Shown: piece after piece, positions 8,801-58,781 of the stretch | How the letters are laid out: each line of letters starts with the position of its first letter | Numbering within the stretch: position 1 is the stretch's first letter | Assembly (NCBI GenBank): GCA_945860865.1 | Contig: CAMARW010000001.1 | Coordinates: 336,294 to 400,293, forward strand | Direction: 5' to 3' | Source: Chitinophaga pinensis | GTDB taxonomy: Bacteria > Bacteroidota > Bacteroidia > UKL13-3 | Length of the DNA stretch: 64,000 nucleotides | The notes under the pieces: generated by a model | What the model saw: only the letters and a program-made list of their open reading frames with translations | The model's database searches: none | Told to the model about the DNA's origin: nothing | Made by a program: the position numbers and the translations under genes

Positions 8801-11800
8801 ATGCAGGCACACAATCATTTGCTTGTTCAGAAATTGGATGCTTTTATAAAAAAGTATTACAAAAATTTATTGCTAAAAGGTGCCATAATTTTTGTGGGTT
8901 TGTTTGTATTGTTTTTTTTGAGCATTACAGCCTTAGAATATTTTGGCAGGTACAATTCTGCAACTCGGGCATTTTTATTTTATGCTTTTCTTGTTATATC
9001 TGGCATACTTCTATTGCGTTTTATACTTTTTCCTTTGCTACAATTGTTTAAAATAGGTAAGCAAATTTCGCATGCGCAGGCGGCGCTCATCATAGGTGTT
9101 CATTTTAAAGAAGTAAGTGATAAACTAATGAATGCCCTGCAACTTTTGGCTCAGGCCAATGAAAGCAATAGTTTATTAACGGCTGCCATACAGCAAAAAA
9201 CCCAAGAGTTATCTCCTTTACCTTTTACAGCAGCGGTAAACTACAAGAAAAATATAAAGTATTTACGTTGGGCAATTATTCCAGTTTTGTTGTTAATAAT
9301 TATCCTTATTGGTTCGCCCAAATTATTGAGCGAAGGAGCTAAAAGGGTTATTCAATATAACCAAACGTTTAAAGAACCTGCTCCTTTTGTTTTTGAAATA
9401 AGCAATGATAAGTTGGAGGCAGAACAGTTTCAAGATTTTGAATTAGCTGTTAAGGTGCAAGGAAATGAAATTCCTGGAGATGTTTTTGTGCATGCTTTTA
9501 ACCAAATATACCGCATGGAAAAAGTGGATGCCACGCATTTTACTTATACCTTTAAAAATTTGCAACAAAGCACTCCTTTCTATTTGGAAGCATTAGGTTT
9601 TGAAGATGATGTGAGGCAAATTGTTGTGCTAAACAGACCTATTATGTTGTCTTATGCTGTGCATTTGGATTACCCAGCTTATTTGCAACAAAAGGATGAA
9701 ACCATTAATAATCCGGGCGATTTAAACATCCCAGCTGGCACGGTTGTGAAGTGGCAATTTACGGGCAAACAAACCGAGTCTGTGCGTTTACAATTTAACA
9801 AGTTTGAGGTTAAGGCAGAAAGCAAAGATTTGGTGCATTACCAATACAGTAGAAAGTTTTTTGTCTCAGATGCGTATGCCATAAAGTTGAGCAATAGTAA
9901 GGTAAACAAGGGCGATTCTTTGTTCTTTCAGATTTCGGTGGTGCCCGATGCTTTTCCGCAAATAAGTATGGAAGAACAGCGGGATTCTGTAACGGGTAAA
10001 ATTTTGTATTTTGGTGGTTCAGCCTCCGATGATCAAGGTTTGAGCAAGCTTACTTTCAATTATAAATTTTTAAAATCGGCTGATCCTAAGAAAGTAGATA
10101 GGGGTTTGGTTACACAAAATATTCCCATACAAATAGGCAAACAAATAAATATTGCCCATGTGTTTAATTTATTTGAAATTGATTTGAACCTAGAGGATGA
10201 GTTAAGTTATTATTTTGAAATATGGGACAATGATGCGGTTTATGGTGCCAAGTCTACTCAGTCTAAACCTTTTGTTTTAAAAGCCCCTTCTAAGCAAGAA
10301 GTAAAAGATCAATCGCAGCAAGATAGCAAGGCTTTGCAGCAAAAAATGGAAGAAGCTCTAAAAGAATCTAAAGATTTGCAAAAAGAGTTAAAAGATGTTC
10401 AGAAGAAATTAAAATCGCAGCAACCTTTAACTTTTGAGGAGAAGAAAAAACTAGAACAATTGCAAAAAAGGCAAAAAGATTTGGTTCAGAAAATAGAAGA
10501 ATTACAACAAGATTTTAAGCAGAAAAACCAGAAAGAACAATCTTTTAAAGAGGAAGAAGAGCGCATTTTAGAGAAGCAAGAGCAGTTGCAGAAAATGTAT
10601 GAGGAGATGCTTACTGATGAAATGAAGCAGTTAATGAAAAAGCTAGACGATATGGTAAAAATGCAGAACAAAGACCAGATTCAGAAGGAGCTAGATAAGT
10701 TAGATGTAAACAACAAAGATGTAGAGAAGGAGTTGGATAGAATGTTGGAAATGTACAAGGAAATGGCCTTAGAGAAGAAAATGGAAGAAACCATGAAGGA
10801 CTTAAAAGACCTTGCCCAGAAGCAAAATGAATTAGCTAAAGAAACAGAACAAAAGACTAAAAGCAACGAAGAATTATTGAAGAAACAAGAGGAGTTAAAC
10901 AAGGCATTTGAGGAGGTTAAAAAGGATATTCAGGAAATGCAAAAAGAGAATAAACAATTAGAAAACCCCAAAGAATTACCTGATACCAAAGAAGCAGAGA
11001 AGAAGATTGAGGATAAGTTGCAACAAAGCAAGGATGAATTAAGTAAGGGAAATAATAAAAAGAGCAGTAAAAGTCAGAAAGAAGCCGCCGACGAAATGGA
11101 GCAAATGCAAGAAAAAATGCAGGAGCAAACGGAGAAAGAAGAGGAGGAGCAAGAAGAAATAGATGAAAAGGCTCTGCGTGAAATATTGGAAAATGTGGTT
11201 CAATTAAGCAAAGACCAAGAGGATATTATGGAGCAAATGAAGGGTTTAGTTGGCTATAATCCTCAATTTGTGAAAATGGCGCAGGAGCAAAAAATCATAA
11301 AAGATAATGCCAGAATGGTAGAAGATAGTTTATTGGCATTAAGCAAAAGAGTGCCAGCTATTCAATCTTTTGTAAACAGAGAGGTAACCAAGTTAAACAG
11401 TCATTTGGATCAAGCTAGTAATAGTTTTTCTACGCGCAATGAGGGGCAAATTAGGGTGCAACAACAGTACGCCATGACCCGTATGAATAATCTTGGCCTA
11501 CTGCTTAGTGAGGCATTGCAACAAATGCAGCAACAATCGCAAGAAAAGAAGGAATCTAAAAAATCGGGCAAAGGTAAACCTTCTAAAAAACCAGGCAAAG
11601 GAAGTAAGCCAAGCATGAGTCAGCTTAAGAAAATGCAAGAGGAAATGAATAAGCAGATGAAAGATGGCATGAATAAAAATGGTAAAGGAGAAAGTAGTAA
11701 ACCCGGCACTGAGCAGTTTGCCCGCATGGCTGCCAAACAAATGGCTATTAGGCAACAAATGCAAAAAATGTTGAGCCAAATGGATGCCCTAGAGAAAGAG

Positions 11801-34689: not shown

Positions 34690-35153
34690 CAACAATTACC
34701 GCCTGGAGTGCATTTTGGCTGGCTATTTACTTCTGCTAAATTAATTTTCAGTTTTTCTGCAGGAATACCGCAACTATCTTGCGCTAAACAAGCCGTTGTA
34801 GTTGCATGTAAAACAAAGCTTTTGCCATTAAATGTCAAACTATATTTGCCAATCGTTTCGCCTTGGTATTCTACCTCAATTTCGCCATCTACTAAGCCCA
34901 GTTTTTCTTCAGAAAGTTGTATAATGTTTAACAGTTTTGTAGGCTTTAAACGGTGGTCTAAATCGTTAGCATTCCATAATTGAAAATTTACTTTTTGCTC
35001 GGTTCTAATTACCCCGCCACAATCAATAAAATGTTTTTGAACAGAACCCACCTCCGTAACATGAAAATGATCGGGAACACTGTTGCCATTATCCAAAACA
35101 AAAGCCACATTTTCTAACTGTGGTAAAATGGTCTTTATCTCTGCTAATCTCAT
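34686..35153 (-). CDS. DUF6428 family protein (ArsR-associated)
   Basis: 155 aa with a conserved Cys-rich C-terminus ('CGIPAEK...CTPGGNCC') and 'HFHVTEVG'. This family is typically encoded next to ArsR in Bacteroidetes ars loci. The family was recognised from memory. Confidence 0.65.
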   Translation of the reverse strand: MRLAEIKTILPQLENVAFVLDNGNSVPDHFHVTEVGSVQKHFIDCGGVIRTEQKVNFQLWNANDLDHRLKPTKLLNIIQLSEEKLGLVDGEIEVEYQGETIGKYSLTFNGKSFVLHATTTACLAQDSCGIPAEKLKINLAEVNSQPKCTPGGNCC

Positions 35154-35204
35154 ATTATTATTTTAAATCTCAAATCCAAAATCTCAAATCCCAAATTTCA
35201 AAAC

Positions 35205-35537
35205 TCAACAACAGCTATTTTTATTAGCTTCTAATTGTTGGCTTATGTTATCAAAATACAATGCTAAGTGATGAATGGCTTTGTCTTCTATGCAATAACA
35301 AATTGCGCTTCCGCTTATTTTACCTTTGATTATACCTGCCTTTTTTAGCTCTTTTAAGTGCTGTGAAATGGTTGCCTGTGCCAATGGCAATACGTTTACA
35401 ATGTCTCCACATATGCAGGTTTTCACCTGCAATAAATGCCCAATAATAGCAATGCGTGCTGGGTGCCCCATGGCTTTAAACATATTGGCCATTTGGTTCT
35501 GTTCTTCACTAAAATATTCTGTTTTGCTGTAACCCAT
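35205..35537 (-). CDS. ArsR/SmtB family metalloregulator
   Basis: HTH 'LPLAQATISQHLKELKKAGII' and a metal-site-like 'CICGDI'. The start was placed at the internal ATG (35537). The ORF track extends to 35582. Confidence 0.8.
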   Translation of the reverse strand: MGYSKTEYFSEEQNQMANMFKAMGHPARIAIIGHLLQVKTCICGDIVNVLPLAQATISQHLKELKKAGIIKGKISGSAICYCIEDKAIHHLALYFDNISQQLEANKNSCC

Positions 35538-35625: not shown

Positions 35626-38010
35626 ATGAAACAAAAGTTTTTATTACTCACCTCTGTGCTTTTACTATTTTTTGCGGGTATTGGATCGGCCCAGCCATTA
35701 ACGCAAACGGTTAGGGGAACTATACTTGATAAAGAAACGCAGGAGCCGCTTATTGGCGCAACGGTGCAATTAAAAACGGCCGATGGAAAAGTTTTGGGTA
35801 CCAGCACAGATGCTTTGGGTAAGTTTAAAATCTTGGGTGTTCCGCTGGGCAGGGTAAGCATGCAAATGAGTTACGTGGGTTACGAGTCTTTACCATTGTC
35901 TGATGTTTTGGTGCATTCTGCTAAAGAAGTTGTTTTACAAATTGTAATGGTAGAAAAAGCGCTGGCTGTTAAAGAGGTTTTGGTTCAGGCTAATAAAGAT
36001 AAAGCGCGTTTAAACAATGAATTGGTTTTGGTAAGCGGCAGAAGTTTTTCGGTAGACCAAGTAAACAGGTATGCGGGTGGGTTTAACGACCCCAGTAGAA
36101 TGGCAGCCAATTTTGCGGGTGTGGCCGGTGGGGGAAACGACCAACGCAATGATATTGTAATTAGGGGAAATTCTCCTTTGGGTTTGTTGTGGCGTTTAGA
36201 GGGTGCAGATATTCCTAATCCCAATCACTTTGGTAGTCAGGGTGCCAATGGTGGTCCGGTTAGTATTATAAACACCAATATGCTTTCTAATTCCGATTTT
36301 TTAACGGGTGCTTTTCCGGCAGAATATGGCAATGCCCAAGCGGGTGTGTTCGACTTAAAATTGCGCAATGGTAATAATGAAAAACGCGAATTTATTGGTC
36401 AGGTTGGCTTTGGCGGTTTAGAACTTTTAGCTGAAGGTCCGATACAAAAATCAAAGGGATCTTCTTTCATGATGAGTTACCGTTACAGTACCCTAAGTTT
36501 GTTTAGTGCCGTTGGGATAAAATTTGGTAATGCGGGCATTCCCAATTACCAAGATGTTAGTTTTAAGTTTCATTTTCCACAAACTAAGTTAGGTTCTTGG
36601 AGCTTTTTTGGCATAGGTGGCAACAGTAATACCCAATTATTAGATAGTAAAAAGGAAGGCGCCGAGCGTCAAAATATCGGTTTTGCCCAAGATATAGATT
36701 TTGGTTCAGCCATGGGCGTAGTGGGTGTTACAAATGTTTTTAGATTGGGCACTAAGGCCTTTGTTAAAACTATTGTTTCTGGTTCTGGAGAAACCAATAC
36801 GGTAAGGGTGGATTCTTTAAGTAGAAACAATGTGCCTTTTTATTTATTGGGAAGATCTACCGCCAATGTGAGGCAAAGTATGCACAGTTTTATAAACTAT
36901 AAACGCAATGCCCAGCAAAGCATAAAAGCAGGTTTCATTTTAAACCGTTTAAGTGGCAGTATGTACGATAGCATTTGGTTAAACCCATTACAAAATTATT
37001 TTAGTAGATTATCTTTTAATGAACACAGTTTTTTAAGTCAGGCTTACCTTAACTACAACCACAGATTGGGTGCAAGATTAAGCGTTAATGCCGGTTTGCA
37101 CCTCAGTTATTTGCATTTAAACAATACACATGGGTTTGATCCAAGGGCAAGTATACGGTATCAATTAAATGCCAATCATACCCTATCTTTTGGCTATGGT
37201 AAGCACAGTCAGATACAACCTTTATTAACCTATTTTACCCGAACATTAGTAGATACCGCTAAACAGGTTTATGCCAATACCAATAAAGATTTGGCCATGA
37301 GCAATGCGCATCATTTTGTGTTGGGATACGATTGGATGCTGGGTTCGCAAACACGATTAAAGTTTGAAAGCTATTACCAAAGATTGGATAATTTGCCAGT
37401 AACACAAAATGCATCTTCGTTTTCAACCCTCAATTTTGGGGCAGATTTTGTGCCTGTTTATGCAGATAGTTTGCGCAATGGCGGCAAAGGGTATAACTAT
37501 GGCTTAGAGATAACCTTAGAGCGTTTTATGAGTAAGGGATTATACTATTTACTTACAGGTAGTTTTTACCAAAGTAAATACCAAGCCAGCGATTTGGTTT
37601 GGCGCAATACAGCCTTTAATGGAAACTTTGTAGTAAACGGATTAATAGGGAAAGAATGGCAAGTGGGTAAATCAAAAAACAACGTGCTGGGTGCCAATAT
37701 AAAAGTGGTTTACAGCGGTGGCAGAAGGTTTATTCCCATAGATGAGATTGCCTCAAAGGCAAGTGGAGGTGTGGTTTTTAAAGAAAATTTGGCTTACCAA
37801 AACAGGTTGCCCGATTTTTTTAGAACCGATTTTAAAATAAGTTTCAGGCAAAATGCCAAACGTTTCACGCAAGAATTTGCCATCGAAATCCAAAATATTT
37901 TTAACACGCAAAATGTGCTGAACCAAATCTGGAACCCCGCAACCGGAAGCATGCAAACAAATTACCAGATTGGATTTTTCCCTGTGCCGTTTTATCGGAT
38001 TTATTTTTAG
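35626..38010 (+). CDS. TonB-dependent receptor with an N-terminal carboxypeptidase-regulatory-like domain
   Basis: Signal peptide, then a CarbopepD_reg-like segment 'VRGTILDKETQEPLIGATVQL', a plug and a large beta-barrel, with a C-terminal aromatic residue ('YRIYF'). 794 aa. No adjacent SusD-like gene. Confidence 0.8.
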   Translation: MKQKFLLLTSVLLLFFAGIGSAQPLTQTVRGTILDKETQEPLIGATVQLKTADGKVLGTSTDALGKFKILGVPLGRVSMQMSYVGYESLPLSDVLVHSAKEVVLQIVMVEKALAVKEVLVQANKDKARLNNELVLVSGRSFSVDQVNRYAGGFNDPSRMAANFAGVAGGGNDQRNDIVIRGNSPLGLLWRLEGADIPNPNHFGSQGANGGPVSIINTNMLSNSDFLTGAFPAEYGNAQAGVFDLKLRNGNNEKREFIGQVGFGGLELLAEGPIQKSKGSSFMMSYRYSTLSLFSAVGIKFGNAGIPNYQDVSFKFHFPQTKLGSWSFFGIGGNSNTQLLDSKKEGAERQNIGFAQDIDFGSAMGVVGVTNVFRLGTKAFVKTIVSGSGETNTVRVDSLSRNNVPFYLLGRSTANVRQSMHSFINYKRNAQQSIKAGFILNRLSGSMYDSIWLNPLQNYFSRLSFNEHSFLSQAYLNYNHRLGARLSVNAGLHLSYLHLNNTHGFDPRASIRYQLNANHTLSFGYGKHSQIQPLLTYFTRTLVDTAKQVYANTNKDLAMSNAHHFVLGYDWMLGSQTRLKFESYYQRLDNLPVTQNASSFSTLNFGADFVPVYADSLRNGGKGYNYGLEITLERFMSKGLYYLLTGSFYQSKYQASDLVWRNTAFNGNFVVNGLIGKEWQVGKSKNNVLGANIKVVYSGGRRFIPIDEIASKASGGVVFKENLAYQNRLPDFFRTDFKISFRQNAKRFTQEFAIEIQNIFNTQNVLNQIWNPATGSMQTNYQIGFFPVPFYRIYF

Positions 38011-38180
38011 AATCTAGAGTCCAGAGTCCAGAATCCAGAATCCAGACTTTTTAGAAACGAGAAGCGAGAGAGGAGATTTTTGAATCTAGTTTATATTTTC
38101 CTTCTACTTGCAAAATGACTAAGTTTAATTCAAAATGCCAGAAGCCAGCTGCTAGAAGCTAGCAGCTAAAAACGAAGTAG

Positions 38181-38254
38181 TGGGCCCACCTGGAATCGAA
38201 CCAGGCACCTACTGATTATGAGTCAGTTGCTCTAACCGAATGAGCTATAGGCCC
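38181..38254 (-). tRNA. tRNA-Met (anticodon CAU), elongator type, or tRNA-Ile2 if lysidine-modified
   Basis: The reverse complement folds as a cloverleaf: 7-bp acceptor stem GGGCCUA/UGGGCCC, D-loop 'AGCUCAUUCGGUUAGAGC', anticodon stem-loop CUGAC-UCAUAAU-CAGUAG, and T-arm 'GGUUCGAUUCC'. A G1:C72 pair argues against an initiator tRNA. CCA is not encoded. Confidence 0.9.
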
Positions 38255-46369: not shown

Positions 46370-46747
46370 ATGAATAGAAAGAACTTTTTAAAATCGATGG
46401 CGCTAGGCGCAGCCTCAACCAGTATTTTAGTAGCAGCTTGTGGCGGTGATGCGCCAAAAACAGAAACTACCACTGCACCAGTAGAAACACCTGAAGAGGT
46501 TCCAGCAGAAACTGCACCAGCTGCCACAGCAGATTGTAACGATTTAAGCGGATTAACAGAAGCTGAAATCAAACAAAGAGAAGCAGTTGCTTATGTTACT
46601 GTTTCTACAGATGCCGAAAAAAATTGCGGAAATTGCCGTTTTATGCAAGAAGGTACCCAAGCAAATGGTTGCAACGGTTGTCAATTATTTAAAGGTCCAG
46701 TTGTACCAGAAGGAAATTGTAAATCTTGGTTTAAGAAGGACGCTTAA
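46370..46747 (+). CDS. HiPIP-like high-potential iron-sulfur protein with a Tat-like/lipoprotein signal
   Basis: C-terminal four-Cys pattern 'CGNCRF...GCNGCQLF...GNCKSWF', as in HiPIP [4Fe-4S] ligation. The N-terminus 'NRKNFLKSMALGAASTSILVAAC' has a Tat-like motif (RK variant) and a lipobox. A Thr/Pro/Glu/Ala-rich linker separates the two. Confidence 0.6.
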   Translation: MNRKNFLKSMALGAASTSILVAACGGDAPKTETTTAPVETPEEVPAETAPAATADCNDLSGLTEAEIKQREAVAYVTVSTDAEKNCGNCRFMQEGTQANGCNGCQLFKGPVVPEGNCKSWFKKDA

Positions 46748-46851
46748 AGCTTCTAGCATCTAGCTTTTTCCTTAGTAGAATGATTTTGGTCGATAGACCA
46801 TAGACCATAGACCATAGTTTTTGGGTTTTTAGACCATTGGTCTATTTATAA

Positions 46852-46889
46852 AAGAGGGGATAGTACTTTGCATTATCCCCTCTTTTTTT
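46852..46889 (+). terminator. rho-independent terminator
   Basis: Hairpin AGAGGGGATA-gtactttgcat-TATCCCCTCT followed by TTTTTTT. Confidence 0.65.
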
Positions 46890-46922
46890 GGCCTGGCGGA
46901 AGCTGCCTCTTGCAGCCGGCCT

Positions 46923-47164
46923 CTAACGAATTTATTCGTGACAATACTCCTACCCGCCGCAGGCAAAGTTAATTCGTGCATCCGTGGCAATACTATTCGT
47001 GCATTCGTGGCAAAAATTTATTCGTGACAATACTCCTGCCCGCCGCAGGCAAAATTAATTCGTGCATCCGTGGCAATACTATTCGTGACAATACTCCTAC
47101 CCGCCGCAGGCAAAATTAATTCGTGCATCCGTGGCGATACTATTCGTGCATTCGTGGCAATACC
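46923..47164. repeat. intergenic tandem repeat array: three copies of a ~61-nt unit plus two partial copies
   Basis: Unit 'ATTCGTGACAATACTCCT(A/G)CCCGCCGCAGGCAAA(G/A)TTAATTCGTGCATCCGTGGC(A/G)ATACT' at 46923, 47010 and 47071. A 'ATTCGTGCATTCGTGGCAA' partial follows copies 1 and 3. Confidence 0.85.
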
Positions 47165-52511: not shown

Positions 52512-52576
52512 AAAAAGCCTACTCAAAATTTGAGTAGGCTTTTAATTTTATTCCATTTAGCTATTATACAATAGTG

Positions 52577-57670: not shown

Positions 57671-58186
57671 ATGTTGCGTATTTCAAAAAATATTAAAAAT
57701 GTTTTATTAATTGGTTTGGGAATCTTTATAATCGCTGCTTGCCAGTCGCCCAAAGAAAAAGCTTTGAAATCAATCAAAAACATGGAGAGTAATGATAGTG
57801 CCTTTAGCAATGAGTTAATGATGAGTCTCAAAACTTCTTACATTGATTTTGCACTAGCTTATCCAGACGATGAGCAAACGCCTGGATTCTTATTTAAAGC
57901 GGCCCAACGCGCCGTTGTTTTGCAGCAGGCAAATGAGTCGGTAGATTTATTGTTACAACTTATCAATAAGTACCCTGCAAATGAGTTTGCAGAAGATGCC
58001 ACCTTTTTGTTGGCATTTACTTATGAGAATAACCTCAACGATTTAACCAACGCGCGCAAATATTACGAGCAGTTTTTAAAGAATTTTCCAAAAGGAGAGC
58101 TTGCAGAAGAAGCAAGATTATCTATTGCCAACCTAGGCAAAACTACTGAAGAGTTTTTTAATGAAATTGAAACAGCGAAAGAGTAA
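57671..58186 (+). CDS. tetratricopeptide-like lipoprotein (hypothetical)
   Basis: Signal peptide with lipobox 'IIAAC'. TPR-like helical repeats ('ARKYYEQFLKNFPKGELAEEARLSIANL'). Confidence 0.55.
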   Translation: MLRISKNIKNVLLIGLGIFIIAACQSPKEKALKSIKNMESNDSAFSNELMMSLKTSYIDFALAYPDDEQTPGFLFKAAQRAVVLQQANESVDLLLQLINKYPANEFAEDATFLLAFTYENNLNDLTNARKYYEQFLKNFPKGELAEEARLSIANLGKTTEEFFNEIETAKE

Positions 58187-58198
58187 GGGAGAATTTTG

Positions 58199-58343
58199 AA
58201 TTAAGAATTACGGATTACGGATTAAGAATTACGCATTGAGTCCAGAATCCAGACTTTAGGTTTTGGCACTTCATTCGTCATTCGTCATCCGTAATTTATA
58301 CTTCACAATTCTTCTCCGTAATTCGTAATCCGTAATCCGTAAT
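58199..58343. repeat. composite intergenic repeat element: a ~28-bp inverted repeat built from ATTACGG heptamers flanking a core that shares 'AGTCCAGAATCCAGACTTT' with the element at 38010-38089
   Basis: Left arm 'AATTACGGATTACGGATTAAGAATTACG' (58206-58233). Right arm 'CCGTAATTCGTAATCCGTAATCCGTAATT' (58315-58343), which is its reverse complement with 1 mismatch. The internal core contains 'CATTCGTCATTCGTCATCCGTAAT'. Confidence 0.8.
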
Positions 58344-58781
58344 TTATCCTTCACAACTCATCCTCAACTTCCCTTTCGGGTAATTGATAATGGCTTTAAA
58401 TTGGTAGAGTAAATCGCTTCCCAACACACCATCTATTTTGGGGAAACCTAAACTTTGGTATGCTTGGTTAACATGACTTAAATCTAAAACAGCAATTTCG
58501 TGATGGGCTAATGCTATTTTGCCCAGTTTAAACTTTGCTAGGCTACTTAAATGTGTTTCTACTTGGTTTGATCCCAATCCGATAGAGTTCATGTCCTGTT
58601 TTATTACGTCGCTTTGTGCAACAAATTTAAGCACTTCCTGCTCATCGAATGCCGTTTTGGATGCGCCAGTATCTAATAGTAAACGTGCTTTTTTGCGACC
58701 AATCTTAGCATAAATAAACAAATGGTAATTGCCCAGTTCTATCTCTATAAATTCTATGGGTAAGGTTTCTTTGAAAGTCAA
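58344..58781 (-). CDS. retropepsin-like (clan AA) aspartic protease domain protein
   Basis: 'LLDTGAS' catalytic Asp-Thr-Gly motif and a second 'GVLGSDLL' motif in a 145-aa protein. Confidence 0.7.
   Translation of the reverse strand: MTFKETLPIEFIEIELGNYHLFIYAKIGRKKARLLLDTGASKTAFDEQEVLKFVAQSDVIKQDMNSIGLGSNQVETHLSSLAKFKLGKIALAHHEIAVLDLSHVNQAYQSLGFPKIDGVLGSDLLYQFKAIINYPKGKLRMSCEG

Follow-up and report, generated by a model that had tools for sequence, protein, structure and literature searches.

A long palindrome between two convergent genes

The stretch of DNA analysed here, the window, covers 64 kb of contig CAMARW010000001.1 (assembly GCA_945860865.1). Our study concerns a long imperfect palindrome that spans positions 58186-58364 of the window and fills the spacer between two convergent genes, which encode a tetratricopeptide-repeat (TPR) lipoprotein and a retropepsin-like aspartic protease. 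The stop codons of the two genes are separated by 157 nt, and the pair is itself flanked by pheT/CoA-binding genes and by the mraZ-rsmH-ftsL-ftsI cluster. The genes, taken from the list of open reading frames (ORFs), and the parts of the palindrome are arranged as follows.

57671..58186, plus strand: TPR lipoprotein gene (171 aa), with its stop codon TAA (58184-58186) inside the extended left arm
58191..58233, plus strand: left arm, six 7-nt units GAATTTT GAATTAA GAATTAC GGATTAC GGATTAA GAATTAC (+G)
58234..58272, plus strand: core, an inner stem-loop CATTGAGTCCAGAATCCAGACTTTAGGTTTTGGCACTTC, with an (AGAATCC)2-type motif at 58239-57
58273..58320, plus strand: inner copy (unit B) of a 48-nt unit, ATTCGTC ATTCGTC ATCCGTA ATTTATACTTCACAATTCTTCTCCGTA
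58317..58344, plus strand: right arm proper, CGTAATT CGTAATC CGTAATC CGTAATT, running into the protease stop codon (58344-58346)
58347-58364, plus strand: outer right arm, the 3' end of the protease coding sequence (CDS; ~20 nt), with a degenerate heptamer periodicity
58344..58781, minus strand: retropepsin-like aspartic protease gene (145 aa, PF13650), with its stop codon at 58344-58346 (TTA on the plus strand)

The identities of both proteins agree with the Pfam calls on identical proteins of metagenome contigs, where the lipoprotein has a TPR_6/YfiO match. An exact look-up of the protease of the window returned no record.

A first-pass annotation of this DNA had described a 28-bp arm and its reverse complement with one mismatch. 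These were found at 58206-58233 (AATTACGGATTACGGATTAAGAATTACG) and 58317-58344, at a distance of 83 nt from each other, and a repeat search extended them to 48 nt (58186-58233 and 58317-58364, 81% complementary), so that they take in the TPR stop codon and ~20 nt of the 3' end of the protease CDS. The predicted RNA has a minimum free energy (MFE) of -56.3 kcal/mol on the plus strand and -60.2 kcal/mol on the minus strand (z = -7.1 and -6.3, respectively), and none of the 200 shuffled sequences folded equally well. When up to two mismatches were allowed, the motif ATTACGGATTACGG had eight matches in the window, against 0.35 expected; seven of them lie in this spacer, and the remaining one is a chance match in a CDS. 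The long imperfect palindrome is thus real and far beyond chance, because its arms match and because no shuffle reaches the observed MFE. With a stem of 28-48 bp it is also, as the same annotation had stated, far larger than a normal intrinsic terminator.

The arms are arrays of heptamers

The arms consist of 7-nt units, GAATTAC/GGATTAC, and Tandem Repeats Finder (TRF) identified period-7 arrays on both sides of the core, with 6 copies at 58190-58231 and 10.4 copies at 58273-58344. The right side has in addition a higher-order organization, because it is made of two tandem 48-nt units (58273-58314 and 58321-58362, spaced by 48 nt and 86% identical). Each unit is a heptamer array followed by the tail TTTAT(A/C)CTTCACAA(T/C)TC. 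In the outer copy this tail is the true 3' end of the protease gene (...RMSCEG*), and unit B is a degenerate copy of the same combination of heptamer array and protease 3' end. The left arm, read on the opposite strand, is a third and inverted copy of the 48-nt unit, in which the order of the unit variants matches that of the right arm.

This anatomy changes the description of the central part. CATTCGT and CTTCACAA, each of which had been taken to occur twice in the core as separate direct repeats, are both parts of the one 48-nt tandem unit, and the second CTTCACAA actually lies inside the protease CDS (58349-58356). The figure of ~80 bp for the core fits the 83 nt between the arms, but the core is itself structured, since 58238-58249 is predicted to pair with 58259-58272 into an inner stem. 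Likewise, the 19-nt motif of the core does recur 20 kb away, at 38032-38050 with one mismatch, but it is not a dispersed element: in the core it is a two-unit AGAATCC array, and both copies are AGAATCC/TCCAGAA arrays. A sigma-70-like promoter within the array was considered by eye and dropped as a poor match.

Spacer alleles within the species

By exact and near-exact look-ups of the two flanking proteins, the species was found in ~25 independent metagenome contigs, whose TPR proteins are 99-100% identical to that of the window. Besides partial alleles, these contigs and the window have at least six complete spacer alleles, several of which were found in 3-8 samples each: 88 nt (4 contigs), 95 nt (3 contigs), 123 nt (3 contigs), 136 nt (1 contig), 143 nt (the commonest, at least 7 contigs) and 157 nt (the window only). 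Polymorphism of length and of presence or absence, the second of which the first-pass annotation had proposed to look for, does occur among related strains.

Whole heptamers, in one arm or the other, distinguish the alleles, as do the degenerate pair GAATTTT GAATTAA (14 nt) and the 48-nt unit. ATTACGN units number 1, 3, 4 or 5 in the left arm depending on the strain, the degenerate pair is missing in L001/2/4, and a single CGTAATT separates the 136-nt from the 143-nt allele. Unit B is missing in the 88-, 95- and 123-nt alleles and present in the 136-, 143- and 157-nt ones, and in a strain with 97% protease identity (L128) the 48-nt unit stands three times in tandem and the DNA farther downstream is different. 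The unit numbers of the two arms vary independently of each other. All alleles keep some inverted symmetry, with predicted RNA stabilities ranging from -32 to -59 kcal/mol, and with z-scores ranging from -1.9 in the 143-nt allele to -10.7 in the 123-nt allele.

The spacer in more distant relatives

More distant relatives have arrays at the same site or very short spacers. In a relative with 80% TPR identity (L235), the spacer is 240 nt long and includes arrays, but it has no inverted arm and no hairpin (z = -0.1). Directly after its TPR stop codon stand (AGAATCC)2-3, in a sequence that can be aligned with the core of the palindrome, and a (TCATAAT/TCATATT/TCATCCT)n array runs into the 3' end of its protease gene. 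A relative with 92% protease identity (L129) ends in a (TTATGAA)n array, and there too the array enters the end of the CDS. The spacer has 46-50 nt in the 76% relative, 11 nt in the 69% relative and ~2 nt in the 60% relative, and these spacers of 2-50 nt are unstructured (z about 0). A search of metagenome contigs for related loci returned three loci, with near-empty sites.

Other observations concern the surroundings of the spacer. In the contigs of the 76% relative (L237-L241, spacer at ~10517-10566) only the length of an A-run varies (5, 8 or 9 A), and the rsmH gene of L237 appears as two ORFs (137 + 126 aa), probably because of a frameshift or an assembly error. In the 92% and 80% relatives, genes encoding Wzy_C/O-antigen-ligase-like proteins and proteins with a Por_Secre_tail (cargo of the type IX secretion system) adjoin the protease gene (L129 6957-9971, L235 2104-4412), and in L129 they sit between this gene and mraZ. 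Because these genes are absent at the corresponding position of the window, the region around the repeat is also a place where synteny is broken.

Other heptamer arrays of the window

An autocorrelation scan of periods 3-14 found tandem arrays in the window at period 7 only, period 14 merely reporting the same arrays again. Period 7 also predominates in ~1 Mb of related and fetched loci, which contain 252 arrays of this period and at most 7 of any other period between 4 and 12. The other period-7 arrays of the window start at 35165, 38009, 38136 and 46793, all of them outside ORFs and with units different from those of the arms. Together with the neighbouring tRNA gene, they are listed here.

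35165-35208: six units AAATCTC/AAATCCA/AAATCCC, filling the 51-nt spacer of two co-directional minus-strand ORFs
38009..38050, plus strand: TCTAGAG TCCAGAG TCCAGAG TCCAGAA TCCAGAA TCCAGAC, just 3' of the stop codon of a 794-aa gene
38136-38168: palindromic heptamer-like array GCCAGAAGCCAGCTGCTAGAAGCTAGCAGCT (GCCAGAA/GCTAGAA), directly 3' of tRNA-Met
38180-38254, minus strand: tRNA-Met
46750-46845: (AGCTTCT)n at ~46750 and (ATAGACC)n at 46793-46817, just 3' of the stop codon of the ORF at 46370-46747

The array at 38009-38050 (5.4 copies) shares its heptamer with the core motif of the palindrome. The arrays that follow the gene at 46370-46747, which encodes a protein resembling high-potential iron-sulfur proteins (HiPIP), constitute a second polymorphic locus, with 2-5 units of AGCTTCT and 1.5-3.6 units of ATAGACC among strains. 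A canonical bidirectional terminator (46862-46890) is conserved beside these variable arrays.

Only a few bases separate the end of the array at 35165-35208 from the start codon at 35153, which lies downstream of it, a placement like that of MacGregor's TAACTGA arrays. The array at 38136-38168 includes an 8-bp stem, GCTGCTAG/CTAGCAGC, which could be the terminator of tRNA-Met. A complex tandem repeat with periods of 61 and 86 nt (92-97% identity) lies at 46929-47163; its modules ATTCGTGACAATACTCCTACCCGCCGCAGGCAAAATTA and ATTCGTGCATCCGTGGCAATACT each have ATTCGTG heptamers and a small CCTxCCCGCCGCAGG hairpin, and strains whose upstream HiPIP-like protein is identical have between 345 and 526 nt in the spacer that contains it. 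When the whole window was compared with Rfam 15 at the gathering score, tRNA-Met (38181-38254) was the only match, and no family matched the palindrome.

Origin of the palindrome

Heptanucleotide simple sequence repeats (SSRs) are called short tandemly repeated repetitive sequences (STRR) in Calothrix and Nostoc. We think it probable that the palindrome is a hypervariable microsatellite of this kind, a long SSR (LSSR), which arose in place between the convergent genes and became a quasi-palindrome. As in other SSRs and LSSRs, its 7-nt copies stand head to tail in both the TRF and the autocorrelation results, its location is intergenic, the window has several such arrays, and close strains differ in copy number by unit steps, here at two loci. 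The 48-nt unit includes native CDS, the length of the protease C-terminus is conserved among relatives, and the two arms share the order of their unit variants, which argues for a local origin. The palindrome is neither a mobile element nor a conserved terminator, but a clear and fairly ordinary case of a known class of repeats.

Comparison of the alleles and of the relatives suggests how the locus was built. The array at the 3' end of the protease gene is evidently the older one, its unit drifting among relatives (from TCATAAT / TTATGAA to TCGTAAT/CCGTAAT), and the mirrored copy beside the TPR stop codon was evidently added only in the species of the window. Gain and loss of whole 7-nt units proceed separately in the two arms, and the 48-nt unit (array plus last protease codons) comes in one, two or three tandem copies. 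From TCATAAT to TCGTAAT the unit drifts by one base, and it is homogenised within the array. The allele patterns are consistent with slipped-strand mispairing changing the number of units and with unequal exchange, or slippage between arrays, duplicating the 48-nt unit. Intramolecular template switching, by inverted duplication and quasi-palindrome correction, might have created the left arm and kept the arms alike. Such a history requires no function, and the 28-48-bp stem of the window is one allele among many.

Several points weigh against this scenario. Slippage and template switching are deduced from the patterns of alleles. Copies of the arm were counted in 64 kb of the genome, and a dispersed family with the same arm may exist elsewhere. 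The AGAATCC unit is found at two loci within these 64 kb and AATTACG-type arrays are commoner than those of composition-matched heptamers, which hints at a non-random seeding of units that pure slippage leaves unexplained. Finally, the inverted symmetry kept in all alleles may reflect weak selection for the hairpin.

Transcription from either side would produce a long RNA hairpin at the 3' ends of both mRNAs. Such a hairpin could stand in the way of 3' exonucleases or of read-through, or be a target of RNase III, and the length of the allele would tune these effects as a by-product. Any effect of this type is probably incidental. The long stem is not required, because the gene pair persists in relatives with unstructured spacers of 2-50 nt and because the commonest allele folds weakly. 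Still, an allele-dependent effect on the processing or stability of the 3' ends is plausible, if unproven, because, in the best experimental precedent, the 5' untranslated region (5'-UTR) of the Haemophilus influenzae hmw genes, a heptamer SSR is one arm of a long hairpin that is cut by RNase III.

The first-pass annotation had instead compared the palindrome with MITEs (miniature inverted-repeat transposable elements) and with repetitive extragenic palindromes (REPs) and their composite forms, the bacterial interspersed mosaic elements (BIMEs), to which REP doublets forming hairpins (REPINs) are added here. These elements are also intergenic imperfect palindromes, often between convergent genes, and can stabilise mRNA 3' ends. 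The insertion of a mobile copy between the two genes might account for the long terminal inverted symmetry, for the presence of the palindrome in the species of the window and its absence from the 69% and 60% relatives, for the 19-nt motif common to a site 20 kb away, and for the frequent breaks of contigs at the palindrome (L003, L129, L231, L232). Yet, REPs and MITEs form dispersed families of near-identical copies moved by REP-associated tyrosine transposases (RAYT) or transposases, and are not made of 7-nt tandem units. Within the 64 kb of the window, the arm pattern at up to two mismatches was found in this spacer only, apart from the chance match in a CDS, unlike the many dispersed, near-identical copies of a 20-40-nt palindrome that REPs form. 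The 191-nt element had no blastn match in 50,697 phage records and only partial, array-to-array matches in 72,556 plasmid records, these matches being heptamer arrays in plasmids of Tolypothrix/Calothrix PCC 7601, Dolichospermum and Bernardetia; neither these records nor the window thus gave further copies with a common internal sequence, and Rfam has no family for the palindrome. The ends do not look like those of a transposable element either, because there are no conserved ends, no target-site duplication and no direct repeat flanking the arms, the outer arm is native CDS, and native protease sequence, from the 3' end of the gene, is part of the 48-nt repeat. Instead of the clean empty sites expected from insertion, relatives of intermediate distance have arrays of related units at the same site and lack the inverted arm, which points to stepwise growth. 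The alleles change in 7-nt steps and not in an all-or-none manner, and the site 20 kb away shares the 19-nt motif only as a further array of the AGAATCC heptamer. We therefore regard a mobile origin as highly improbable.

A bidirectional terminator, insulator or stabiliser of mRNA 3' ends, selected to act as a long RNA hairpin in the manner of the enterobacterial REPs, would fit the exact position of the palindrome between two stop codons, at both of which the arms begin. It would also fit the very stable predicted fold on both strands, the moderately U-rich sequence after each arm, the inverted symmetry partly kept in every allele, and the AATTACG-array hairpins that Chitinophaga and phage contigs have directly 3' of stop codons. 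We nevertheless find it unlikely. Intrinsic terminators have G+C-rich stems of ~5-15 bp, small loops and U-tracts, whereas this stem is AT-rich, 28-48 bp long and closed by a core of 83 nt, with no U-run; the terminator scan did not report it. The hairpin is absent from the orthologous sites of the 80%, 76%, 69% and 60% relatives, and the gene pair works without it, because spacers of 2-50 nt in relatives are unstructured. Even in the species of the window, the commonest allele, of 143 nt, folds little better than shuffled sequence, and the unit numbers of the two arms vary independently. The organism does not depend on heptamer hairpins for termination, because the window has canonical U-tract terminators at 52513-52543, reported by the scan, and at 46862-46890, read from the sequence as it lies outside the range of the scan. 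The ATTACGN arrays of other genomes, moreover, have neither the depletion pattern typical of terminators nor a strand bias.

The heptamers could also be iterated sites for a sequence-specific DNA- or RNA-binding protein, in which case the palindrome would be two opposed binding arrays. A regulator reading heptamers was proposed by MacGregor for the TAACTGA arrays (PMC4679880). In agreement with such a reader, AATTACG x3 outnumbers three composition-matched heptamers 5-9 times in IMG/VR, N=A dominates the ATTACGN arrays across phyla among the matches listed, a single phage genome can have AATTACG in several of its spacers even with a GC content of 55-65%, and the AGAATCC unit occurs twice in the window. 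But the number of units is highly unstable, units are degenerate within one array (ATTACGG, ATTAAGA, ATGACGA), the other arrays of the same genome have unrelated units, the arrays show no strand bias relative to genes, AATTACG is absent among the non-seed arrays of control loci, and no candidate protein was identified. All this makes binding sites a very unlikely explanation. That the palindrome and its variants are artefacts of short-read metagenome assembly is hardly credible. Several contigs do end inside the repeat, one of them (L003) in the adapter-like AGATCG, but samples and pipelines independent of each other gave identical alleles (ENA, JGI, Logan; the 88-, 95-, 123- and 143-nt alleles 4, 3, 3 and at least 7 times, respectively). 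The arrays of up to 35 nt and the ~100-nt duplication are shorter than typical reads, and at the second repeat locus the 186 nt downstream of the HiPIP gene are the same in a 44-kb JGI contig (L251) as in the window.

The microsatellite reading has consequences for genome annotation. Very long intergenic palindromes in Bacteroidota and cyanobacteria can be mirrored microsatellites, and are not necessarily mobile elements, terminators or small RNAs. Mirrored microsatellites are hotspots of strain-level variation in length and of assembly breaks. The allele series offers a rare within-species view of the growth of a heptamer SSR, of its higher-order duplication, of the invasion of a gene 3' end and of the formation of a palindrome. 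With it, two questions can be tested in a natural population: why bacteria favour 7-nt units, a question that dates from 2007, and whether the formation of hairpins feeds back on repeat instability, as for H. influenzae hmw.

AATTACG-type arrays in other genomes and in phages

Arrays of the ATTACGN type are widespread. In 185,579 species genomes, ATTACGN x3 was found at 120 loci at least, against ~17 expected by chance according to our own rough estimate. Among the matches listed, which do not include the species of the window, they occur in Nostocales, Chloroflexota, Bacteroidota (including three Chitinophaga species), Acidobacteriota, Planctomycetota, Ignavibacteria, Ruminococcus and the candidate phyla radiation (CPR). 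Among these same matches, N is A in 113 of the ~135 arrays, and ~30 arrays have an inverted partner at most 300 nt away, often giving an (AATTACG)n-loop-(CGTAATT)n hairpin that adjoins a stop codon. In IMG/VR, (AATTACG)3 was found in 64 stretches from ~45 samples (our own tally of sample codes in contig names), and three composition-matched heptamers repeated three times in 11, 7 and 13. AGAATCC x3 had 73 matches, mostly from one phage family in one sample, and ATTACGG x3 had 2. The enrichment of AATTACG rests on three control heptamers, and no AATTACG was found among the non-seed arrays of the loci fetched with other heptamers, which rules against this unit being a universal favourite. The excess (64 vs 7-13) is only suggestive, because of this absence in control loci and because the 73 matches of AGAATCC come mostly from one family.

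The placement of the ATTACGN arrays in 184 fetched loci showed no clear terminator-like pattern or strand bias. In the bacterial loci, 22 arrays lie between convergent, 14 between divergent and 67 between tandem genes, with 27 in sense and 31 in antisense orientation, as far as can be told from a crude calling of ORFs, noisy in high-GC DNA. The ATTACG arm precedes the CGTAAT arm in 17 cases and follows it in 9, a difference that is not significant by our own rough estimate.

Some of these loci deserve description. Two related phage contigs of IMG/VR at 55-58% GC contain at least four copies of a conserved ~95-nt intergenic cassette (L151 5815-5935 and 9590-9715; L164 1470-1600 and 2985-3110), in which a stop codon is followed by (AATTACG)4, a short loop, (AATTCGT)2 AATTC..AATTCGTAATTC, AGCGAAAGGAGAGAGCGA and an ATG. 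The cassette looks like a phage-specific hairpin combined with a translation-initiation region (ribosome-binding site). Two other phage contigs have at least 5-6 dispersed AATTACG arrays or hairpins in separate spacers (L159, 9.9 kb, 55% GC; L146+L154, one 17.7-kb contig, 64-65% GC), at GC contents where the AT-rich AATTACG is very unlikely by composition; in L146, (GGAATTA)n adjoins one of the AATTACG arrays. In Chitinophaga varians, C. fulva and C. solisilvae (L016, L018, L087), hairpins directly after stop codons have an outer stem of (ATTACGA)3-4/(TCGTAAT)3-4 and a unique inner stem, e.g., ATGTAGAGGCGGAGATAAAA...TTTTATCTCCGCCTCTACAT in L087. This two-layer stem is the architecture of the palindrome of the window.

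These arrays could be thought to form a distinct class, found across phyla and carried by phages, often as hairpins after stop codons, of which the palindrome of the window would be a degenerating member. The common cause of such ATTACGN-type (mainly AATTACG) arrays would be sequence-specific, either a factor reading the AATTACG unit or a mechanism writing it, rather than random slippage. The class may span Bacteroidota, Nostocales, Chloroflexota, Acidobacteriota, Planctomycetota and Firmicutes, together with phage genomes of up to 55-65% GC. We find this idea doubtful, and yet the recurrence of AATTACG across phyla and in phages is the only part of our results that could lead to something new.

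Comparison with known heptamer-repeat systems

Our search of full-text literature found no paper with AATTACGAATTACG, ATTACGGATTACGG or their complements, but the palindrome shares traits with several described systems. Heptamers are the most over-represented class of long SSRs in many bacteria (Mrazek 2007, as related in PMC4679880, PMC4692102). Like LSSRs and STRRs, the arrays of the window are tandem, strictly intergenic and many per genome, period 7 is by far the commonest, and strains differ in copy number by 7-nt increments (PMC4679880, PMC4692102). They differ in their host, an uncultured freshwater member of the Bacteroidia, in their unit (ATTACGG/ATTACGA), in the arrangement of two opposed arrays as a 28-48-bp stem, and in the 48-nt higher-order repeat that includes coding sequence.

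Inverted arrangements are known from Xanthomonas, where 70-75 of the ~185 GGGAATC heptamer arrays of Xcc/Xac form inverted pairs able to fold into a stem-loop or cruciform (Rehm et al. 2015, PMC4692102). There, as here, arrays of the same heptamer lie close together on opposite strands and vary in length between related strains. The Xanthomonas unit is G-rich and capable of forming quadruplexes, whereas that of the window is AT-rich and has no G-tract, and the locus of the window has a dense series of alleles within a species, with arms that change independently. The TAACTGA intergenic repeats of Beggiatoaceae, Cyanobacteria and Bacteroidetes also show 7-nt indels between strains and shorter, repeat-free spacers in relatives (MacGregor 2015, PMC4679880). 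They resemble our arrays by a genome-specific "vocabulary" of heptamers and by a scattered phylogeny that includes Bacteroidetes, but most of them are direct arrays, placed immediately upstream of start codons, and they are almost never inverted (PMC4679880). The array at 35165-35208 is closer to their placement than the palindrome is.

Finally, in the hmw1A/hmw2A genes of H. influenzae, a phase-variable (ATCTTTC)n SSR is one arm of a long RNA hairpin that is cleaved by RNase III (PMC12721329, PMC8262952), and this structure is needed for changes in repeat number (PMC12721329). The two systems have in common a heptamer SSR as an arm of a long RNA hairpin, predicted in the case of the window, and a copy number that varies in populations. 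The hmw repeat lies in a 5'-UTR, has a single SSR arm and has a demonstrated function in the control of an adhesin, whereas the palindrome of the window stands between two gene 3' ends and both of its arms are SSRs.

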